Shown one piece after another: positions 37,919 through 59,055 of a stretch of DNA of 62,366 bases. The stretch is from Fidelibacterota bacterium (lineage in GTDB: Bacteria > Fidelibacterota > Marinisomatia > Marinisomatales > JABMOV01), in NCBI GenBank assembly GCA_013203145.1, contig JABMOV010000105.1, forward strand, positions 1 through 62,366. Reading direction: 5' to 3'. The position numbers were made by a program, and so were the translations under genes. The first letter of the stretch is position 1; each line of letters opens with the position of its first letter. The notes under the pieces were generated by a model, which searched no databases, was not told the DNA's origin, and was given only the letters and a program-made list of their open reading frames with translations.

Positions 37919-38383
37919 ATGTTTGAAAATATAAAAATGTCAGCAGCTGTTCTTTTTGCATCTGCGATTGTAGGTATATTGGGTGGATATATTCTTTTTA
38001 CTAATTCTGTAAGAGAAGAGATTCGGGATATTGTTTATTCGGATAATTACTTAAGTGAGGTTGCTAGTAAAGTAAATCGATATATGATTTTTGATGATCA
38101 GAAAATTGTATCTTATGATAGGCATACTCTTGATCTAATTGAGGAATTCGATATTGAATGGACTACACCAAAAACCGGAGGTAGTGACTTTCCGGGGAAG
38201 ATTACTGTATTTTTTAAAGAATACATAAAAAACGAACCATTGCTTTCAATAGTTAATAATTATAATCAAAATATAAAAATACAGAGAGGTGAATTTAAAA
38301 ATTGGATATTTATTTTAAATCGACCTATCTCAAATTCAAGCGAACGTGAACCAATAAGATATAAATTGGAATTACTTGACTGA
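37919..38383 (+). CDS. hypothetical membrane-anchored protein
   Basis: 154 aa with an N-terminal TM segment 'AAVLFASAIVGILGGYILF' and a GGAG SD. Very AT-rich. No family recognised. Confidence 0.6.
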   Translation: MFENIKMSAAVLFASAIVGILGGYILFTNSVREEIRDIVYSDNYLSEVASKVNRYMIFDDQKIVSYDRHTLDLIEEFDIEWTTPKTGGSDFPGKITVFFKEYIKNEPLLSIVNNYNQNIKIQRGEFKNWIFILNRPISNSSEREPIRYKLELLD

Positions 38384-38508
38384 TGAATACACCGATTCTG
38401 GATCTACCCGTTATGTCGGAGAATTTGGAATGCTGAATATAACTGCGAACTACCTATTGAAATGGAACACTGCCCCCATTGGGATTAAATGAAGTCCTTG
38501 GATTAGTT

Positions 38509-39018
38509 ATGATTGAGTGGATAAAAGAAATGGACTGGGAGTTAATTAATTCATTTACAGGTTGGTTAATACTCATCTCAATTTATATAGCCTATATCAT
38601 GATGAGAAGACGTGTCAGAATCAGAGCACTAATGTATGTGGCTATTGATAACCCAACTGAATTCCATAGTTTAAAAATTGAAGTATTGAATAGTGGCTAT
38701 AATAATATATCCATTAGTGGTGTTTTTTACCGAATCCGTTTTTTTGTTTGGAAAAAGGATTACTGGATTCGCGATCAATCGTTTAATGGCTCCAAAGTGT
38801 TAGTTTCCCAGGAATCAGTCGATTTTATGATACCGGAATTAGTATTAGCAGAACATTTAAATAGTATCTTCCAACGTTATAAATATATTCCAAAAAGAAT
38901 AATACTCGGTTGTTTATTTGTAACGGCACCATCATCAGTCAAAATATTTCAGAAGCACATAGGTTTTATTGATCAAAGACAGATATGGAAAATCTACAAG
39001 AGATATCCATTTGATTAA
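38509..39018 (+). CDS. hypothetical membrane protein, paralog of 39033..39548
   Basis: I chose the ATG at 38509 (ORF track: TTG at 38479). The N-terminus 'MIEWIKEMDWELINSF'+TM then aligns with 'MIEYIKLWDWDFINSV'+TM of the next ORF. Confidence 0.6.
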   Translation: MIEWIKEMDWELINSFTGWLILISIYIAYIMMRRRVRIRALMYVAIDNPTEFHSLKIEVLNSGYNNISISGVFYRIRFFVWKKDYWIRDQSFNGSKVLVSQESVDFMIPELVLAEHLNSIFQRYKYIPKRIILGCLFVTAPSSVKIFQKHIGFIDQRQIWKIYKRYPFD

Positions 39019-39032
39019 ATACTGGAGATTCA

Positions 39033-39548
39033 ATGATTGAATACATCAAGTTGTGGGATTGGGATTTTATTAACTCGGTTTCACAATTGTTAATTGCATT
39101 TTCAACCTTTTTAGCGATCATCCTTTCTTTGTATTTATCAAAGAGCGCAATAAGACAAAGAGTAAAATGTAAAACAAAATTTATTTATTATTACGAATCA
39201 AATAAATATGGAATCAGTTCAGTGTTGATTAGTAAATGTCCAGCAAAAATATTTATTGATAGTGGTAATATTCAGTATGGCTATTTATTCAGACATAAAG
39301 AAAAGTTAGCATTCGAATCATTTAATGATTGGTTTATAAATCCGTATGGTTCATTCGAATTGTTTGCAAATAACTTTGGAATAAGTAAAAAGCTAATCTC
39401 AAAATATAATATTTACCCCCGAATATTTTTTATAATCTACTTACTGAGTTTTCGTGTAGTATTTATAACTACGCATGGGAAATTAATAAAAGCTGCGTTA
39501 GGGAGAAAGTCGCGGAGATATTTGTTAGATTGTATTTCAAATAATTAA
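39033..39548 (+). CDS. hypothetical membrane protein, paralog of 38509..39018
   Basis: 171 aa. GGAGA SD 5 nt upstream. Shares the N-terminal motif plus TM segment with the preceding ORF. Confidence 0.6.
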   Translation: MIEYIKLWDWDFINSVSQLLIAFSTFLAIILSLYLSKSAIRQRVKCKTKFIYYYESNKYGISSVLISKCPAKIFIDSGNIQYGYLFRHKEKLAFESFNDWFINPYGSFELFANNFGISKKLISKYNIYPRIFFIIYLLSFRVVFITTHGKLIKAALGRKSRRYLLDCISNN

Positions 39549-39712
39549 GTACAATTCTGCAAAAATGCCACCATATCGAGCACTATATTTTTATTTTGTT
39601 TTTTTCACCAAAGACAGACTGTCACACCGCTCATTAAGCATTTAATAGGGATTCAACGACGTATTAAACGTATTTAACGCCCGATTTAATCATCCACCCT
39701 AATGCGAGATCG

Positions 39713-39758
39713 TTCCCGCGATTTCCCATCATTTCCCGGGTTATCCCGCTTATTTCCC
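39713..39758 (+). repeat. five helically phased (T/A)TCCC repeats (10,10,10,11-nt spacing) in a 547-nt non-coding gap
   Basis: The run reads cgTTCCCgcg atTTCCCatc atTTCCCggg ttATCCCgct tatTTCCCct. Motif starts are at 39713, 39723, 39733, 39743 and 39754. Confidence 0.7.
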
Positions 39759-39840
39759 CTGTTAACGCTGCAAAATCGCCCGAATTTTCTACTGATTATT
39801 GTTAGTCCCCACATTTTTTCATACTGCATATAATTAATAA

Positions 39841-39860
39841 AAATACGTAGTAGAGCGTAT
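39841..39860 (+). repeat. 20-nt exact direct repeat, copy 1 (AAATACGTAGTAGAGCGTAT)
   Basis: Identical 20-mer at 55202..55221. It is preceded by the -10-like TATAAT at 39829-39834. Confidence 0.9.
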
Positions 39861-40095
39861 GGACAAAAAATTGAAGAACTCTTAATTTAGTCCAGTTGGA
39901 AATAAATAATTCTGATGTGGAATATAATATTCTTTATAGTAGTAATTATCGTATTACAACGGGGGAATCAACAAGATGCCCAGAATATAACCATCGTTAT
40001 TTCCAAAGAGTAGAATGTAATGAAGCATACACTATGAAAATAGATGTTGCTTACAGAATGTAAAATCATATTGAAATAAAAAAGAGGACTAAATC

Positions 40096-40470
40096 ATGAG
40101 TGATTATAATATCGATCTTGACAATTTCGAAGCCAAAACACTAAATGAAGAAGAAAGTTGTACTAACTTAAATGTTAAAGCAAACCGGACAAGTACCTTC
40201 ACAGCCAATAAGGGTATAAATGTTGATAAAAATGCTTCTTTGATAACTGATAATGTGAGCACCATTACTATAAACAAGCACTTGAAATGCAATGGCGATA
40301 GTACTATAACAGCAAATAATGTGAGTACCATTACGATTTATGGCGCTGATTTAAATGGTCATACTACAATAGTAGCCAAAAAAACCTCTACTGTGACAAT
40401 TCATGGAAATGTTAAAAGTTCTACAATAGATAAAGACAATTCCTCAACGGTTACATTTTATAGCCGATAA
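40096..40470 (+). CDS. small repeat protein, beta-solenoid-like (unknown function)
   Basis: 124 aa with an AGAGGA SD. It carries ~22-aa repeats with an 'STxT(I/V)' core: DNVSTITINKHLKCNGDSTITA / NNVSTITIYGADLNGHTTIVAK / KTSTVTIHGNVKSSTIDKDN / SSTVTFYSR. The DNA shows the same repeat at 40249 and 40315. Confidence 0.6.
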   Translation: MSDYNIDLDNFEAKTLNEEESCTNLNVKANRTSTFTANKGINVDKNASLITDNVSTITINKHLKCNGDSTITANNVSTITIYGADLNGHTTIVAKKTSTVTIHGNVKSSTIDKDNSSTVTFYSR

Positions 40471-46355: not shown

Positions 46356-47069
46356 TTACCTCCATCTCCGAGTTTCTACCATACGGATGGTAAGGGTGAG
46401 AAAAAGCCATATCATGGTTCCAAAGTAAATCAGGTTTCGGGAATCAATTACTCCTCGCGACATATTTGATAAATGGTAATCCACGCTCAAATACTGGATA
46501 ATCCCTGCCAGTGAATGAGGGACGAATATTAGGAGTTTATCCATGAGGAAAAATACCAATACGATGACGACCGCAATGATAAATGCCACCACTTGATTTT
46601 CAGTAAGGCTGCTGGAAAAAATCCCGATGGCAGCATAAAATGCACCAACGAAAATCAATCCCAGATACCCACAAAGGGCCGCACCAAAATCAATATTAGC
46701 TCCCACAGACGCTAAGGTGAAAAAGTGTACCAGGGTAAATGCTAAACCTGCAACGATAAGTACTAAAGCGGACAGATATTTACCCATCACAAATTCCCAA
46801 TCACGGATTGGCAATGTTGCAATTACCTCGATGGTACCGATATTTTTCTCCCTCGCCAAAAGTCCCATGGTAATCACAGGAATAAAGAAAAGGTAAACCA
46901 ATGGAACGATGCTGAATAATGCGCGCATATCCGATTGATTAATGAGGAAAAATGTGTTTGTAAAGAAATACCCGTTAAACAGGGTGAAACACACCAAAAA
47001 TATATATGCCATTGGACTCATGAAATAGGAGCGGAGTTCTTTGACAAAAATGGTTTTCACATTATGCAT
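46356..47069 (-). CDS. ABC-2 family transporter permease (GldF-like)
   Basis: 237 aa with about 6 hydrophobic segments. Overlaps the ATPase gene by 8 nt. Confidence 0.8.
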   Translation of the reverse strand: MHNVKTIFVKELRSYFMSPMAYIFLVCFTLFNGYFFTNTFFLINQSDMRALFSIVPLVYLFFIPVITMGLLAREKNIGTIEVIATLPIRDWEFVMGKYLSALVLIVAGLAFTLVHFFTLASVGANIDFGAALCGYLGLIFVGAFYAAIGIFSSSLTENQVVAFIIAVVIVLVFFLMDKLLIFVPHSLAGIIQYLSVDYHLSNMSRGVIDSRNLIYFGTMIWLFLTLTIRMVETRRWR

Positions 47070-48006
47070 TTGAGCCTCCTTCCATGGTCAATGAGCGGAA
47101 TACATCCTCAAGTTGAATTTTATGTCTGCTCATTTCAAGGATGACCCATCCGGAATCGACGGCATGCTTGAAAATGGATTCCCGCGGATCAGATCCACGT
47201 TCATATTCAATAGAAAGTGAAAATGTTTCACCATCCTTAGGTCCGATGGATACATCCAATGCCGGATGTGTTGCTTTCAATGTATGGACAGAATCCTCGC
47301 TCACATTTTTCACTTCAAGAGCAAGCTGAGTACGACCTTTAAGATTGGCAATGAGTTCCTTGCTGGTTCCATTTGCCACAATGATTCCGTCATCAATGAT
47401 GACGATTCGGTCTACCGTTGCTTCGATTTCTTGAAGAATATGGCTGGACATAATGACCATTTTTTCTTGTCCGATTTGCTTGATAAGCTCCCGGATTTCC
47501 ACAATTTGGTTTGGATCTAATCCTGTGACAGGTTCATCCAAAATTAATATGTGTGGATCATGAATCATGGCACATGCTAATCCAATGCGCTGTTTGTATC
47601 CTTTCGAACAGGCTGAAATCTGGCGGTGGATGACACCTTGTAACCCGCATTGTTCCACAACTTTGCCCAATGCTTTTCGGAAATCTTTACCGATAATTCC
47701 TCTTACACGAGCTGTGAACTCAAGTAAATCATATACCATCATTTCTGGGTATAGTGGATTCGATTCAGGTAAATATCCAATTTGCTGACGGATATCCAGG
47801 GAATGATCTAAAATGTTTTGATCGTTTACATAAACATTTCCCGATGTTGGGGAAAGAAAGCTAGTCATGATTTTTAAGGTTGTTGATTTACCAGCGCCGT
47901 TGGCACCTAAAAATCCAACAATTTCGCCATCATTTACGTCAAAACTAATAGATCGCAAAGCCTGGACATCACCATAATGTTTAACAAGATTCTCAATACG
48001 AATCAT
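47062..48006 (-). CDS. ABC transporter ATP-binding protein (GldA-like)
   Basis: Walker A 'GANGAGKST', signature variant 'CSKGYKQR', Walker B 'ILILDEP'. Confidence 0.92.
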   Translation of the reverse strand: MIRIENLVKHYGDVQALRSISFDVNDGEIVGFLGANGAGKSTTLKIMTSFLSPTSGNVYVNDQNILDHSLDIRQQIGYLPESNPLYPEMMVYDLLEFTARVRGIIGKDFRKALGKVVEQCGLQGVIHRQISACSKGYKQRIGLACAMIHDPHILILDEPVTGLDPNQIVEIRELIKQIGQEKMVIMSSHILQEIEATVDRIVIIDDGIIVANGTSKELIANLKGRTQLALEVKNVSEDSVHTLKATHPALDVSIGPKDGETFSLSIEYERGSDPRESIFKHAVDSGWVILEMSRHKIQLEDVFRSLTMEGGSNA

Positions 48007-55036: not shown

Positions 55037-55105
55037 TTCACCATCCCAATAACCCAATTTTGATTAAGCGGTGGTGCGATCCACCGCTTGACGAATGAAT
55101 TGTAA
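55037..55105 (+). pseudogene. decayed 3'-terminal fragment of a paralog/allele of the GME-superfamily gene 49494..50381
   Basis: Ungapped alignment with 50313..50381 matches 56 of 69 nt by my own count. It translates FTIPITQF*LSGGAIHRLTNEL* against ITIPTTQFRLSGGAIHCLTNEL*, showing an in-frame stop and catalytic Cys to Arg. Confidence 0.8.
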
Positions 55106-55221: not shown

Positions 55222-55311
55222 TGTATTATTCAATACCACGTTACTATACTTATTACTTATTTTTAGAATATACTCAATGCGTTTTCACAACTAAACGAAA
55301 CAGGAGATATT

Positions 55312-56109
55312 TTGGGGCATACTCGATTAGGATATATACCAAAATCAAAAAAATTCAAAGCGCTTTTGGAAAACTATTTTTCTAACGGGGCATTTGACAA
55401 TTCTGAGATTGAAAAAGCAATAATCACAATTGCTGGAGCTACACTTGAAGCTGCAAAAGAAGGAATGAGAATCGCTAAATCTGATAAAGGTGTACAATTT
55501 ATATTTAGTCTTTTAACTCAAATTGTCTCTTCGTCTTCAAATGATAATTGGTATGACGAGATGAAAAATTTGGGAATTAATATCAATAATAAATCTCAAT
55601 ATTTTGATTTATCCTGTGAATCTCAAAAATTAGTTGATCAATATTTATTCCATAATAACCTTGGTTCTGATCTAAGCGAAATGGCTCAATCTGCAATGGG
55701 AGATGCATTGTCGTCTGTTGTGAAAAGTGAGACAGTCAATCTATTTAAATCTGACAATGACCTTCAGAGCAGATTTAATAAAAATACAGAACAAGAAAAT
55801 TTCGTTTGTATCAGCAAATCATTTTTCAGTGGATTTTTAAATAGATATCTGAATTTTTTTCTAAGCCGGATATCAGTTGATACTAATCGTGGGAAAATGA
55901 TTAGAAACCTACAAGACAATAGGGATTTCAATAAATCGCTAAAGATTCACTGCGATCAAACTTCTTACATAGTTGAGGATTTTAGTAGAGGATGGTATGG
56001 AAAAACTAGGTATAAGAATAAAATCGATAAGCCCGACACCACAGGATTTGTTGCCACAGCTTTAGATAAGCTTAAAAACGAGATGATTATGCAGGGTAAG
56101 GGAAAATAG
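55312..56109 (+). CDS. hypothetical protein, first gene of the QueC-like/SIR2-like cassette (possible QatB-position partner)
   Basis: 265 aa. TTG start with an AGGAGA SD at 55303-55308. Its TAG stop overlaps the GTG start of the next gene (TAGTG). No motif recognised. Confidence 0.65.
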   Translation: MGHTRLGYIPKSKKFKALLENYFSNGAFDNSEIEKAIITIAGATLEAAKEGMRIAKSDKGVQFIFSLLTQIVSSSSNDNWYDEMKNLGININNKSQYFDLSCESQKLVDQYLFHNNLGSDLSEMAQSAMGDALSSVVKSETVNLFKSDNDLQSRFNKNTEQENFVCISKSFFSGFLNRYLNFFLSRISVDTNRGKMIRNLQDNRDFNKSLKIHCDQTSYIVEDFSRGWYGKTRYKNKIDKPDTTGFVATALDKLKNEMIMQGKGK

Positions 56110-57980
56110 TGATCCAGCCCAGGATATATCTCTGTAATGGAATTTGCGAGAAGGAATATCCTTTATTACCTGACAAATACAAACCTGTCGAATTAAATTC
56201 GAATATTAGGTTCCCCAACGTAAATGTATTTATAGAACTTTATAATATAACTAACAGGTTAAATAATAATATTTCTCCAAGAATGCGTGATTTATTAGAG
56301 ATAGCGTCTTATATATATTGTGGGGATATTGCGACAAGTAGAGGATCTCACTGGACAAATAAGAGTTCAATTGAATCTTGGCAGCGTGAACTTAAATATG
56401 TTATTCCAGTTCGTGATTATGATTTTTGGACTCAATCTTCAGTAATATTCCAATTAAGAGAAACTTTAAATTTCTTAACAAATGATATTTATGATTTTGA
56501 GTTTCGCAAATTAAATATTTCTGATCATGATCAGATGTATATCAAATTATCAGAAGATAAAAAAATAAATGATTATATCTTTGACAAAGTAGTATTATTC
56601 TCAGGAGGACTTGATTCTTTAGCTGGAGCAATTGAATCTTTACACAATGATGAAAAAATTATACTGGTCAGTCATAGATCAAATGCAGTATTAGATAGTC
56701 GTCAAAGGAAATTATTTTTCGAGATTCAACGCAAGTACAAGAAAAATGTATATCATATTCCGGTATGGGTAAATAAGGCCAAAGGGCTAAGCAATGATTA
56801 TACGCAAAGAGCTAGATCATTTCTCTTTTCTTCACTTGGAGCAATAGTTGCCCACTCACTTTCGATTAATAATATTAGATTTTACGAAAATGGAACGGTT
56901 TCAATCAATTTACCTGTAGCAGAAGAGGTCGTTAGAGCGCGGGCATCAAGAACCACCCATCCAAAAACATTATTTTACTTCCAAAAATTTTTCAGTTTGG
57001 TAACAGAGAAAAAATTAAATGTTGAAAATCCATTTATATACTGCACAAAAACTGACGTTGTCACCAAACTTAAAAAATATAATGCTGAACATTTAATACC
57101 GTTGTCTTGTTCATGCGCGCATCCGTTTGAAAAAACAAAAACTCAATGGCATTGCGGTATATGTAGTCAATGTATTGATAGGAGGGTGGCAATACTATCT
57201 TCAGGATTAAGTGAGTATGATTCCGATAACGATTACATAACTGATGTCTTTCTAGGTAAGCGTAAAATAGGACCTCAAAGAAACATGGCATTGGGATATA
57301 TAAAATTAGGATTAGATTTATATGATCTTGATGAATCAGTCTTATATGAAAAATTCAGTCTTGAAATATCTAGGGCGATAGAAAATTCTGATAATCGTAG
57401 TGAGGCTGCAGGATCAATAATTAGTCTTTTAAAAAGACATGGGGAAACCGTACGGAATGTATTTCGAGAACAGTATAGGTCTAATTCTGATAAAATTATT
57501 GATGGGGAAATTGAACCAAGTTCAATATTGGGATTAGTAATTGGACAAAAACACAATGAGAAATCATGGATGAAATTTGCTAATAGAATTTTTGAAATAT
57601 TAAACGATGGAATTCCAATTATTTGCCAAACTGAAAAACCTGATATTGAACCTAGATTGCAAGAAATGTGTGATGGATTACTAAGTTCAAATGGGGAAAT
57701 ATTAGATCGGGAATATCCTTTTGTTCAATGGGCATCTCGATTAACAAAACCTGATTGGCAGTCTGAAGAATATTCACTATTTGTTGAACTGAAATACATT
57801 AGGGAAAAAAGCGATATCAGTAGGATTACGCGGAGTATTTCGAGTGATATTACTACATATGGTGATAATGGTAGAAAAACTTTATTCGTGGTATATGATC
57901 CATATTATTTACTTATTAGCCGTGACAAGTTCGTTTCAGATATTGAAAAACATGATGGCCAGCTAGCAAAGATAATTTAG
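56109..57980 (+). CDS. QueC-like PP-loop ATPase with long N- and C-terminal extensions
   Basis: 623 aa. PP-loop 'VVLFSGGLDS' (residues 161-170, nt 56589-56618). QueC-type Cys cluster 'SCSCAH...HCGICSQCIDRR' (C336-x12-C349-x2-C352-x2-C355). C-terminal 'KPDW...VELKY' (residues 547-563). Confidence 0.7.
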   Translation: MIQPRIYLCNGICEKEYPLLPDKYKPVELNSNIRFPNVNVFIELYNITNRLNNNISPRMRDLLEIASYIYCGDIATSRGSHWTNKSSIESWQRELKYVIPVRDYDFWTQSSVIFQLRETLNFLTNDIYDFEFRKLNISDHDQMYIKLSEDKKINDYIFDKVVLFSGGLDSLAGAIESLHNDEKIILVSHRSNAVLDSRQRKLFFEIQRKYKKNVYHIPVWVNKAKGLSNDYTQRARSFLFSSLGAIVAHSLSINNIRFYENGTVSINLPVAEEVVRARASRTTHPKTLFYFQKFFSLVTEKKLNVENPFIYCTKTDVVTKLKKYNAEHLIPLSCSCAHPFEKTKTQWHCGICSQCIDRRVAILSSGLSEYDSDNDYITDVFLGKRKIGPQRNMALGYIKLGLDLYDLDESVLYEKFSLEISRAIENSDNRSEAAGSIISLLKRHGETVRNVFREQYRSNSDKIIDGEIEPSSILGLVIGQKHNEKSWMKFANRIFEILNDGIPIICQTEKPDIEPRLQEMCDGLLSSNGEILDREYPFVQWASRLTKPDWQSEEYSLFVELKYIREKSDISRITRSISSDITTYGDNGRKTLFVVYDPYYLLISRDKFVSDIEKHDGQLAKII

Positions 57981-58074
57981 TCGCAATTATTCGAAGAATT
58001 TTTGTACATCAAGAATTATAATTTTATTTACGTTTATTACTATACTTGTTTCAAATGAATCTCTTGGAGGTATC

Positions 58075-59055
58075 ATGATAAAGGAAAATACTGTGTTCAT
58101 TTTAGGAGCAGGGGCAAGTAAAGCCTTTGGCTATCCTACCGGAAGGGAGCTTACAAACTATATTAAAACAAAATTCATTGGGGACTTTGAAAGGAGTTTT
58201 GGTAAAGTTACTCAACCGGGTTCAGCACAGGAGGAAAAAATTGATGAAGCAAAAATATTTGTTGATGCCTTTATACAAAGTGGCGGCGGAACTTCAATAG
58301 ATTATTTTCTCTCGAGAGCCAGAAATCATGGCCAAAGACGAATAATTCAAAACTATGGGCGACTTGCTATTGCATTTAATATTATACAACGTGAAATAGT
58401 TCACAGTAAAAACCAGATTGATATTGAAAATGATAATGATGATAATTGGCTTGATTATTTTTATGAACATTATTTTCTTTCCGGTCAATTAGAAATAGAT
58501 CCCGAAGAAATATCTCAAGTGCCGATTAGTATTATTACATTCAATTATGATAGATCTCTTGAGTATTTACTTTATAGTCGTCTAAAGCAAATTGTAAATA
58601 ATAATGATGAGGATATAGTAATGAAAATCCTTAATAAAATTCCAATTATACATATTCATGGTATTATTGCTCATCTTCCCTGGCAAGTGATGACAAAGGA
58701 AGTGAAAAATCGAATTCAATATGGAGCATTGAAATTGCATACTGCAGATATATTAAAGCAGAACATTAAAATTGTACATGAAAAATCAAATACTGATATT
58801 ATTAGGGAAGCGAAATCTAAAATTAAGAGGGCTGATAAAATCTACTTTTTAGGGTTTGGATATGATACAAACAATCTGGAGAAAATTGGAATCCCCAAAT
58901 TGTTACATGAAGGACAACAAATATATGGTACTGGTCGCACCACTAATCGAATTCTTCATGAGACATCACAATCTCTCCTAAACAATGGACTTGAGGAAGA
59001 AGATATCATACTTGAAAACAAAGGCATTACACAGCTTCTTACTGATTACCCCTAA
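58075..59055 (+). CDS. SIR2-like (SIR2_2-type) domain protein, putative NADase effector
   Basis: 326 aa with a GGAGG SD. Ordered motifs are 'VFILGAGASKAFGYPTGRELT' (residues 7-27), 'ITFNYDRSLEYLL' (154-166), 'IIHIHG' (191-196) and 'IYFLGFGYDTNNL'. Confidence 0.6.
   Translation: MIKENTVFILGAGASKAFGYPTGRELTNYIKTKFIGDFERSFGKVTQPGSAQEEKIDEAKIFVDAFIQSGGGTSIDYFLSRARNHGQRRIIQNYGRLAIAFNIIQREIVHSKNQIDIENDNDDNWLDYFYEHYFLSGQLEIDPEEISQVPISIITFNYDRSLEYLLYSRLKQIVNNNDEDIVMKILNKIPIIHIHGIIAHLPWQVMTKEVKNRIQYGALKLHTADILKQNIKIVHEKSNTDIIREAKSKIKRADKIYFLGFGYDTNNLEKIGIPKLLHEGQQIYGTGRTTNRILHETSQSLLNNGLEEEDIILENKGITQLLTDYP

Follow-up and report, generated by a model that had tools for sequence, protein, structure and literature searches.

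Positions 55,312 to 59,055 of contig JABMOV010000105.1 from a Fidelibacterota bacterium (assembly GCA_013203145.1) hold three consecutive open reading frames (ORFs) on the same strand, which a preliminary description made from the letters alone had presented as one candidate defense cassette consisting of a small partner protein (ORF1), a QueC-like PP-loop ATPase (ORF2), and a SIR2-like protein (ORF3). We analyzed the full 62,366-nt stretch, referred to below as the window, together with related loci from other genomes, and came to a different reading that we consider probable, namely, that ORF1 and ORF2 are a two-gene QatBC-like antiphage module with a built-in effector and that ORF3 is an unrelated standalone SIR2 gene. 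The genes are as follows.

55302-55307, + strand: Shine-Dalgarno-like AGGAGA, 4 nt 5' of the ORF1 TTG.
55312-56109, + strand: ORF1, TTG start, 265 amino acids (aa), QatB-like partner and presumed substrate protein.
56109-57980, + strand: ORF2, GTG start, 623 aa, predicted QatC-family PP-loop enzyme with a predicted C-terminal PD-(D/E)XK nuclease.
58075-59055, + strand: ORF3, ATG start, 326 aa, predicted standalone SIR2-fold protein.

The final base of the ORF1 stop codon is the first base of the ORF2 GTG start codon (a 1-nt overlap), and an AT-rich spacer of 94 nt separates ORF2 from ORF3, with GGAGG lying 5' of the ORF3 ATG. The start codons of all three genes are backed by homologues that align from residue 1 in the family alignments, where the N termini read MGHTRLG (ORF1), MIxPR..C (ORF2), and MIxxxTVFILGAGAS (ORF3). 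The GC contents of ORF1, ORF2, and ORF3 are 0.325, 0.323, and 0.328, compared with 0.39 to 0.43 for the flanking genes and 0.39 for the window, and their GC contents at third codon positions (GC3) are 0.27, 0.23, and 0.235; among 587 sliding windows of equal length, just 3 had a lower GC content. The strand, starts, spacing, and AT-rich composition given for the three genes in the preliminary description, together with the stop-start overlap and both Shine-Dalgarno motifs, were therefore all found to be present.

The system with which ORF1 and ORF2 are best compared is QatABCD (Gao et al. 2020), for which QatB-QatC structures are available (9y01/9y02, 9vlk, and 9zee; PMC13279940, PMC13376578, and PMC13639016). 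Three structural papers from 2026 identify QatB-QatC as the smallest functional unit of QatABCD, sufficient for defense on its own; the reaction could not be reconstituted in them, nor could the way in which it stops the phage be explained. QatB is a ten-helix domain with an unstructured N terminus; its MGTS glycine motif is essential for defense (PMC13279940), its tail sits in the active site of QatC, the catalytic residues of which are also essential, and its N terminus tethers the TatD nuclease QatD.

ORF2 matched the NCBIfam QatC model (NF041925) with an E value of 7.3e-64 and 216.1 bits, the equivalog cut-off being 280 bits, and the PADLOC QatC model with an E value of 4e-61. A family profile built from 32 homologues retrieved the QatC chains 9vlk_A (1.3e-40) and 9zee_B (9e-38) from the PDB, and hhalign aligned the ORF2 family to nine plasmid QatC proteins annotated by the Prokaryotic Genome Annotation Pipeline (PGAP) with a probability of 100% and an E value of 2.8e-49, the alignment running from residue 54 to 369 of ORF2 and from 57 to 373 of the 465 residues of QatC. 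Identity to QatC is 30%, and in the PDB and hhalign alignments the match begins at residue 54 to 58, within the N-terminal extension. The features of ORF2 within this region are the following.

56268-57215, + strand: QatC-homologous region (ORF2 residues 54 to 369), comprising a QatC-type N-terminal extension and a QueC-like Rossmann core.
56601-56618, + strand: PP-loop S165-G-G-x-D-S170, the ATP pyrophosphate-binding motif, invariant in 32 homologues.
56943-56963, + strand: A-S-R-T-T-H-P (residues 279 to 285), a QatC-type remodelled active-site loop, with R278 to P285 invariant.
57114-57173, + strand: Zn-binding cluster C336-x12-C349-G-x-C352-x2-C355-x2-R-R, invariant in 32 homologues.

The PP-loop serines S165 and S170 align with S156 and S161 of QatC. 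The remodelled loop aligns without gaps to N265-H282 of 9zee_B (Pseudomonas aeruginosa numbering), so that S280 and T282 of ORF2 occupy the positions of QatC T278 and T280, which themselves stand where QueC and Cap9 have base-recognizing Tyr and Asp residues, and canonical QatC has an equivalent Zn site with a CGxCxx..RR pattern. ORF2 thus has the structure-defined features of QatC, i.e., the PP-loop, the Cys4 Zn site, the N-terminal beta/alpha extension, and the long loop, QatB-binding in QatC, that ends in S/T-R-T-T-H-P, and judging from its sequence, we concluded that it is a QatC-family PP-loop enzyme of the QueC fold. The proposal that ORF2 is QueC/QatC-like, with SGGxDS and C-x12-C-x2-C-x2-C motifs, was in this way upheld by the Pfam, NCBIfam, PADLOC, and PDB profile searches. 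More than 120 homologues of about 622 aa share its architecture at 44 to 50% identity, and their source names are "7-cyano-7-deazaguanine synthase," "hypothetical protein," and, in one case, "PD-(D/E)XK nuclease domain-containing protein."

The first of these names, which many of the homologues bear, raises the question of whether ORF2 might be a genuine 7-cyano-7-deazaguanine synthase (QueC) acting in queuosine/preQ0 synthesis, a reading that the Pfam QueC match (E = 6e-8) would also favor. That match, however, covers only model positions 93 to 205, the C-terminal half, and the QueC model TIGR00364 gave 24 bits against a cut-off of 150, whereas the QatC model gave the far stronger match cited above. 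In addition, ORF2 is about three times as long as QueC and has extra domains, there is no queD, queE, or folE in its neighborhood, and canonical QatC fails to complement a queC deletion. We find this identity hardly credible.

ORF2 homologues were collected by an alignment-based search, which was needed because ORF2 used as a single query retrieved no genome loci. The resulting 85 loci came from 80 species-representative genomes, 1 plasmid, and 4 metagenome contigs. An ORF1 homologue lay directly upstream of the ORF2 homologue on the same strand at 77 of the 85 loci; 42 of these 77 pairs share an overlap of exactly 4 nt, and overlaps also occur in the majority of the others. ORF1 is a dedicated, translationally coupled partner of ORF2.

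ORF1 itself matched nothing in Pfam, PADLOC, or NCBIfam (PADLOC v2 has no ORF1 model), and its family profile retrieved no QatB from the PDB. The family is nevertheless large, since an exhaustive profile search returned 1,492 cluster representatives at E values of 1e-3 or below and 1,043 at 1e-10 or below, and it is marked by its N terminus.

55312-55332, + strand: N-terminal motif M-G-H-T-R-L-G of ORF1, nearly invariant, with Gly2 the presumed acceptor amine.

A start of the form MGHxRLG, including Gly2, was present at 71 of the 77 loci, and all representatives sampled over the range of scores had it as well. The AlphaFold2 model of ORF1 (predicted local distance difference test [pLDDT], 77; predicted template modeling score [pTM], 0.79) is all alpha, with 11 helices and a disordered stretch at residues 1 to 14. 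Foldseek comparison of this model with the PDB, one of the checks that had been suggested, gave QatB as the sole high-probability match (9y02_A, probability 0.96; 9y01_A, 0.85), with template modeling (TM) scores of 0.44 to 0.52, all other matches having TM scores of 0.26 or below. Membership in the QatB sequence family was rejected, as Pfam, PADLOC, NCBIfam, the PDB profile search, and hhalign were all negative. ORF1 resembles QatB in its position, its size, its class of fold, and the glycine at its N terminus and lies outside the QatB sequence family. The proposal that ORF1-ORF2 mirrors qatB-qatC therefore stood in respect of gene order, overlap, size, and the N-terminal glycine.

The preliminary description had given the effector slot to SIR2, and it overlooked a REase_DpnII-MboI domain at the C terminus of ORF2.

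57744-57962, + strand: PD-(D/E)XK nuclease domain, REase_DpnII-MboI (PF18742), ORF2 residues 546 to 618.

The Pfam match (E = 2.7e-6) scored 27.4 bits, the cut-off being 27, and the same domain is precomputed on nearly all of 120 ORF2 homologues. In the 32 aligned homologues, D549, E560, and K562 of the catalytic signature are invariant and P548 is conserved in at least 90%. We concluded that the C terminus of ORF2 is a predicted PD-(D/E)XK nuclease domain with an intact D...ExK site, and we presume it to be the built-in effector of ORF2.

Comparison across relatives showed unrelated C-terminal modules of at least six classes attached to the QatC-like core, which spans residues 1 to about 480. 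The DpnII-MboI nuclease was found at 29 loci, a domain of about 170 aa without a Pfam match at 25 Acidobacteriota loci, and further domains without Pfam matches of about 229 aa at 12 loci, of about 147 aa at 6 loci, and of about 174 aa; at one locus, in a Planctomycetota metagenome-assembled genome (MAG), the nuclease is replaced by a calcineurin-like metallophosphoesterase (Metallophos) in a protein of 905 aa (L040:5887-8604). The MGHxRLG partner is retained with every variant. The combination of an unchanging sensor or enzyme core with an exchangeable output domain usually marks an immune system. Because the same ORF1/QatC-like core bears differing C-terminal modules, we concluded that the core serves as a sensor/regulator unit whose effectors can be exchanged. 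Placing SIR2 in the effector slot is thus not sustained: a nuclease is fused to ORF2 here, other modules take its place in relatives, and the link to SIR2 is adjacency alone.

The pair travels with mobile elements. Its neighbors include integrases (11/144) as well as recombinases, transposases, ParB-like genes, primases, methylases, ResIII, and reverse transcriptases (RT), and clustering of neighbors revealed no recurrent third gene beside the pair, yielding only integrases, recombinases, transposase-like genes, and ParB-like genes. At a group of Acidobacteriota loci (L027 to L053), ParB-like (~313 aa) and Cys-rich transposase-like (~366 aa) genes repeatedly lie upstream of the pair on the opposite strand and tyrosine integrases lie downstream, and the pair there has the appearance of cargo carried by a family of integrative elements. 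Plasmid p1_LIP1709037 of Leptospira noguchii, the only plasmid in PLSDB with the pair, carries overlapping genes for proteins of 260 and 621 aa directly downstream of an IS982 transposase (L166:4156-6800), both of which PGAP calls "hypothetical protein." In a few of the nearest relatives, a same-strand gene for a 227-aa protein with no Pfam match lies about 26 nt past the QatC-nuclease gene (L001:7802-8485, L178:7895-8578, and L180:4368-5051); neither the window nor most pair loci have this gene, which could be a lineage-specific third component. Listeria phages LM 4-14-1 (OR848142.1) and LM 4-11-1 (OR846725.1) encode an unannotated QatC-like protein with 26% identity to residues 61 to 388 of ORF2 (E = 2e-17).

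The repeated flanking of the pair by integrases, recombinases, transposases, and ParB-like genes would also suit a nonimmune role, either as addiction or toxin-antitoxin-like mobile cargo in which ORF1 restrains the nuclease or as an enzyme directed at nucleic acids, such as a nuclease whose QueC-like domain would let it read or write DNA modifications of the 7-deazaguanine type. QueC-fold enzymes do act on 7-deazaguanine bases, with relatives that take part in DNA modification, and the nuclease is of the restriction enzyme type. However, the S/T-R-T-T-H-P loop lacks the Tyr and Asp that recognize deazaguanine in QueC and Cap9, and the score of 24 bits against TIGR00364, far below its cut-off, likewise argues against a base-modifying enzyme. 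The invariant Met-Gly N terminus of ORF1 is best explained by the protein-substrate model of QatB and CdnD, and swapping of C termini in the company of restriction-modification methylases, ResIII, and RT is typical of defense islands. We consider a nonimmune role unlikely, noting that addiction and defense are not mutually exclusive.

We then considered ORF3. Its motifs GAGAS (residues 11 to 15), TFNYDR (155 to 160), H193-x-H-G196, and FLGFG (258 to 262) are invariant in 34 homologues, as are G11 to S15, N157, D159, and H193 individually; the motif series claimed for ORF3 was thus present, except that the conserved histidine is H193 and not H195. The Pfam SIR2_2 model scored 20.3 bits, under its gathering score of 24.5, and the PADLOC SIR2 match was weak; the SIR2 fold itself was recovered from structure. 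The AlphaFold2 model (pLDDT, 84.4; pTM, 0.87) gave 49 Foldseek matches in the PDB at E values below 1e-3, every one of them a SIR2 fold, led by SIR2-HerA (1.7e-6), KomC, Sir2Tm, FAM118B, and SPARSA. As modeled, ORF3 has a true SIR2 fold.

ORF3 belongs to a large family, and its relatives are solitary proteins of about 310 to 340 aa. Among 80 loci of the family (the best genomic loci), no neighbor is conserved, and the neighbors are mainly housekeeping genes (arginyl-tRNA synthetase, KdsB, CTP synthase, and RsfS), with no integrases among the families listed. In Pirellulales and Sedimentisphaerales (L108, L115, L118, L120, and other loci among L082 to L161), kdsB lies 5' and argS or pyrG lies 3' of the ORF3-type gene, and this conserved synteny in several Planctomycetota genomes points to vertical descent and possibly to a part in housekeeping or regulation rather than a defense island lifestyle. 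ORF3 is most likely an independent standalone protein acting on NAD+, and because its relatives sit in a housekeeping-like context, we are cautious about calling it a defense gene.

These results bear on the model of the preliminary description, in which ORF1 and ORF2 sense infection and activate the ORF3 SIR2 as an NAD+-depleting effector, all three genes forming one system. In its favor, the genes share a strand, with a 1-nt overlap, a 94-nt gap, and no terminator predicted between ORF2 and ORF3; their GC and GC3 values are nearly identical and lower than those of the flanks; residues N157, D159, and H193 of ORF3 are intact; and the top structural matches are the defense NADases SIR2-HerA and KomC. 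The trio also occurs in one further assembly, although its proteins there are 100% identical and so come from the same population. However, no ORF3 homologue was found at the 85 pair loci, either with phmmer or with the family hidden Markov model at an E value of 1 or below, and no ORF1 or ORF2 homologue was found at the 80 ORF3-family loci. The closest metagenomic relatives of the pair lack ORF3, and those of ORF3 lack the pair. Moreover, ORF2 has its own fused nuclease effector, and the ORF3 family is partnerless and usually placed among housekeeping genes. Absence of co-occurrence was an outcome named beforehand as telling against a single cassette, and we concluded that QueC and SIR2 lie side by side in this one genome by chance and do not form a conserved cassette. 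The three-gene model is accordingly very doubtful, and the narrower idea that the ORF3 SIR2 was recruited as an extra effector in this one genome is in our estimation just as improbable. The claim that a pairing of QueC with SIR2 is undescribed did stand, in that no report of one was found in the literature searched.

Beyond the features shared with QatC that are listed above, ORF2 resembles it in its partner, as ORF1 is, like QatB, encoded directly upstream by an overlapping gene and predicted to be helical, with a length of about 265 aa and a disordered tail starting Met-Gly; as with QatBC, two genes may suffice. Unlike QatABCD, the locus has no QatA (KAP NTPase), either in the window by PADLOC or as a recurrent neighbor in 80 related loci, and no TatD/QatD, either in the window or among the recurrent neighbor families, a PD-(D/E)XK domain being fused to ORF2 instead. 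The second instructive comparison is with type IV CBASS (cyclic oligonucleotide-based antiphage signaling system), in which Cap9 and CdnD carry out a deazaguanylation: the glycine at the N terminus goes into the active site and undergoes modification (Wassarman et al. 2025). Like Cap9-CdnD, ORF1-ORF2 pairs a predicted ATP-dependent enzyme of the QueC fold with a glycine-tailed protein, and it was this system that served as our template for mechanism. Unlike type IV CBASS, ORF1 to ORF3 and the rest of the window include no CD-NTase and no Cap10 (TGT-like) gene, and unlike Cap9, a minimal protein of about 185 aa that retains the substrate residues of canonical QueC, ORF2 is large with a QatC-type remodelled site. 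PADLOC scans of ORF1 to ORF3 and 52 other ORFs of the window agreed with the earlier statement that no QatA-type ATPase, TatD nuclease, TGT-like gene, or CD-NTase is present.

With QueC, ORF2 shares the PP-loop ATP pyrophosphatase fold, the SGGxDS loop, and a C-terminal Cys cluster; it differs in having its catalytic and substrate-binding motifs replaced, in its extra N-terminal, linker, and nuclease domains, and in lacking any queuosine pathway context. The C terminus of ORF2 resembles REase_DpnII-MboI (PF18742) in its PD...ExK signature but differs from restriction enzymes that stand alone and have a cognate methylase in being joined to a QatC-like protein, relatives of which carry nonnuclease domains at that place. 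ORF3 shares its SIR2 fold, GAGxS, NxD, and His with SIR2 NADases (SIR2-HerA/Nezha, ThsA, DSR1/2, SPARSA, and KomC) and with FAM118 sirtuins, but unlike SIR2-HerA, Thoeris, DSR, SPARSA, and Kongming, it has a single domain, without a sensor part such as the large C terminus of DSR, and the window holds no HerA, TIR, SLOG, prokaryotic Argonaute (pAgo), or KomA/B partner.

By analogy with QatB-QatC and Cap9-CdnD, ORF1 and ORF2 may form a 1:1 complex. The initiating Met would be removed from ORF1, and the amine of Gly2 would enter the PP-loop active site of ORF2, which would spend ATP to adenylate a carboxylate substrate and then ligate it to the ORF1 N terminus. The state of this conjugation, or of the complex, during infection could gate the fused nuclease, which would cleave DNA and so stop the phage or the infected cell. 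The nuclease fused to ORF2 would in this way do in cis what QatD, the TatD nuclease tethered by QatB, does in trans. ORF3 presumably consumes NAD+ separately from the pair.

Several points weigh against this reading of the locus. ORF2 falls below the NCBIfam QatC cut-off, making it a clear homologue of QatC and not an equivalog, and the sequence alignment between the two ends at about residue 369, without likeness to QatC's C-terminal extension, a three-helix element with a basic patch (R407/R410/R414) that binds QatB. Unlike QatC, ORF2 continues by sequence into a linker of about 115 aa followed by the nuclease (or by other modules in relatives), residues 370 to 485 showing conservation among its homologues. 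In sequence and profile comparisons, ORF1 showed no similarity to QatB, as hhalign against eight canonical QatB proteins gave a probability of 5.9%, compared with 100% for the ORF2 family against QatC (positive control) and 0.3% for the ORF1 family against QatC (negative control); the Foldseek match to QatB had an E value of 0.16; and the tail of ORF1 is short (about 12 to 14 residues) and begins MGHxRLG, unlike the long Gly/Pro-rich tail and MGTS motif of QatB. The PF18742 match is barely over its threshold. ORF3 matches the pair in strand, GC, and GC3 across the 94-nt gap, where no terminator was detected, so its co-acquisition, co-transcription, or a local functional link with the pair is possible; promoter and terminator scan counts were within the shuffled expectation and hence uninformative on co-transcription. 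The canonical QatC reaction was not reconstituted in vitro (PMC13279940), so the chemistry suggested above would be an analogy to an analogy, and the defensive role of ORF1-ORF2 is itself argued from homology and genomic context. We nonetheless regard the two-gene QatBC-like module as the probable explanation of ORF1 and ORF2.

The window is chromosomal and contains a dcw cluster (MraZ, RsmH, MraY, FtsA, and FtsZ). Downstream of ORF3, TetR, OEP, and HlyD genes form an operon, in agreement with the unrelated TetR efflux operon reported earlier as the downstream flank. The upstream neighbor of ORF1 is a DUF5916 gene, the closest relative of which is in a "Candidatus Neomarinimicrobiota" MAG (56% identity); the contig of this sole genome relative (L173) ends 263 bp past the gene. 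The following feature lies between the DUF5916 gene and ORF1.

55064-55091: hairpin with an 11-bp stem, a 6-nt loop, and no U-tract, about 60 nt past the DUF5916 stop codon, at the left edge of the low-GC island.

It has a minimum free energy of -26.4 kcal/mol (z = -3.06; none of 200 shuffles folds equally well) and no match in an Rfam search, and because it lies about 60 nt past the stop codon, it is probably the terminator of the DUF5916 gene. A "decayed gene fragment" that had been placed at 55037-55105, upstream of the cassette, was rejected in favor of this terminator-like hairpin. As for signatures of integration around the islet, no tRNA was detected in the window, the flanks showed no convincing direct repeats, and the Rfam search returned no family.

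Elsewhere in the window, a second low-GC patch (0.31 to 0.32) at 37919-40470, just past mraZ, contains three ORFs that follow one another on the + strand, of 154, 179, and 171 aa, without Pfam matches. A 124-aa ORF at 40096-40470, also without a Pfam match, has a repetitive sequence of the STITI/STVTI type. The patch may be another small foreign islet. On the - strand, the ORF at 47062-48006 matched mad3 (2e-25), mad8, HEC-01A, and AriA in PADLOC, the only ATPase matches in the window; these were rejected as defense genes, the ORF being by Pfam an ordinary ABC transporter ATPase located beside an ABC-2 permease and auxiliary genes. A weak PADLOC match to mad2 in the window (4.8e-7) did not recur when 40 window ORFs were rescanned at E values of 1e-5 or below.

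The family to which the pair belongs comprises about 1,000 to 1,500 clusters at 50% identity, mostly from uncultivated Acidobacteriota, Planctomycetota, Chloroflexota, Cyanobacteria, and their relatives, and is nearly absent from sequenced plasmids and phages, which is probably why it has been overlooked so far. Among cyanobacteria, the cultured Cylindrospermum sp. NIES-4074 is a carrier, and Almyronema epifaneia also has the genes. We found no description of the QatC-nuclease fusion or of the MGHxRLG partner family in the literature searched; a 2026 survey of the QueC superfamily reports that only about one-third of its QatC cluster has qatA or qatD as neighbors and does not describe these fusions. 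Whether we are dealing with a large unnamed family of two-gene immune modules, in which a QatC-like ligase with interchangeable effectors acts on partners of the MGHxRLG family, seems to us evenly balanced.

The annotation of these proteins is in any case corrected, as members are now called "7-cyano-7-deazaguanine synthase" or "hypothetical protein," and the QueC-SIR2 pairing is removed as a tempting false lead. The family amounts to a natural experiment in which the QatC-type core and its glycine-tailed partner have been kept and the output has been written into the same polypeptide, and it predicts that the QatBC-type core is a regulator or sensor from which the effector is separable. [quoted passage not shown]

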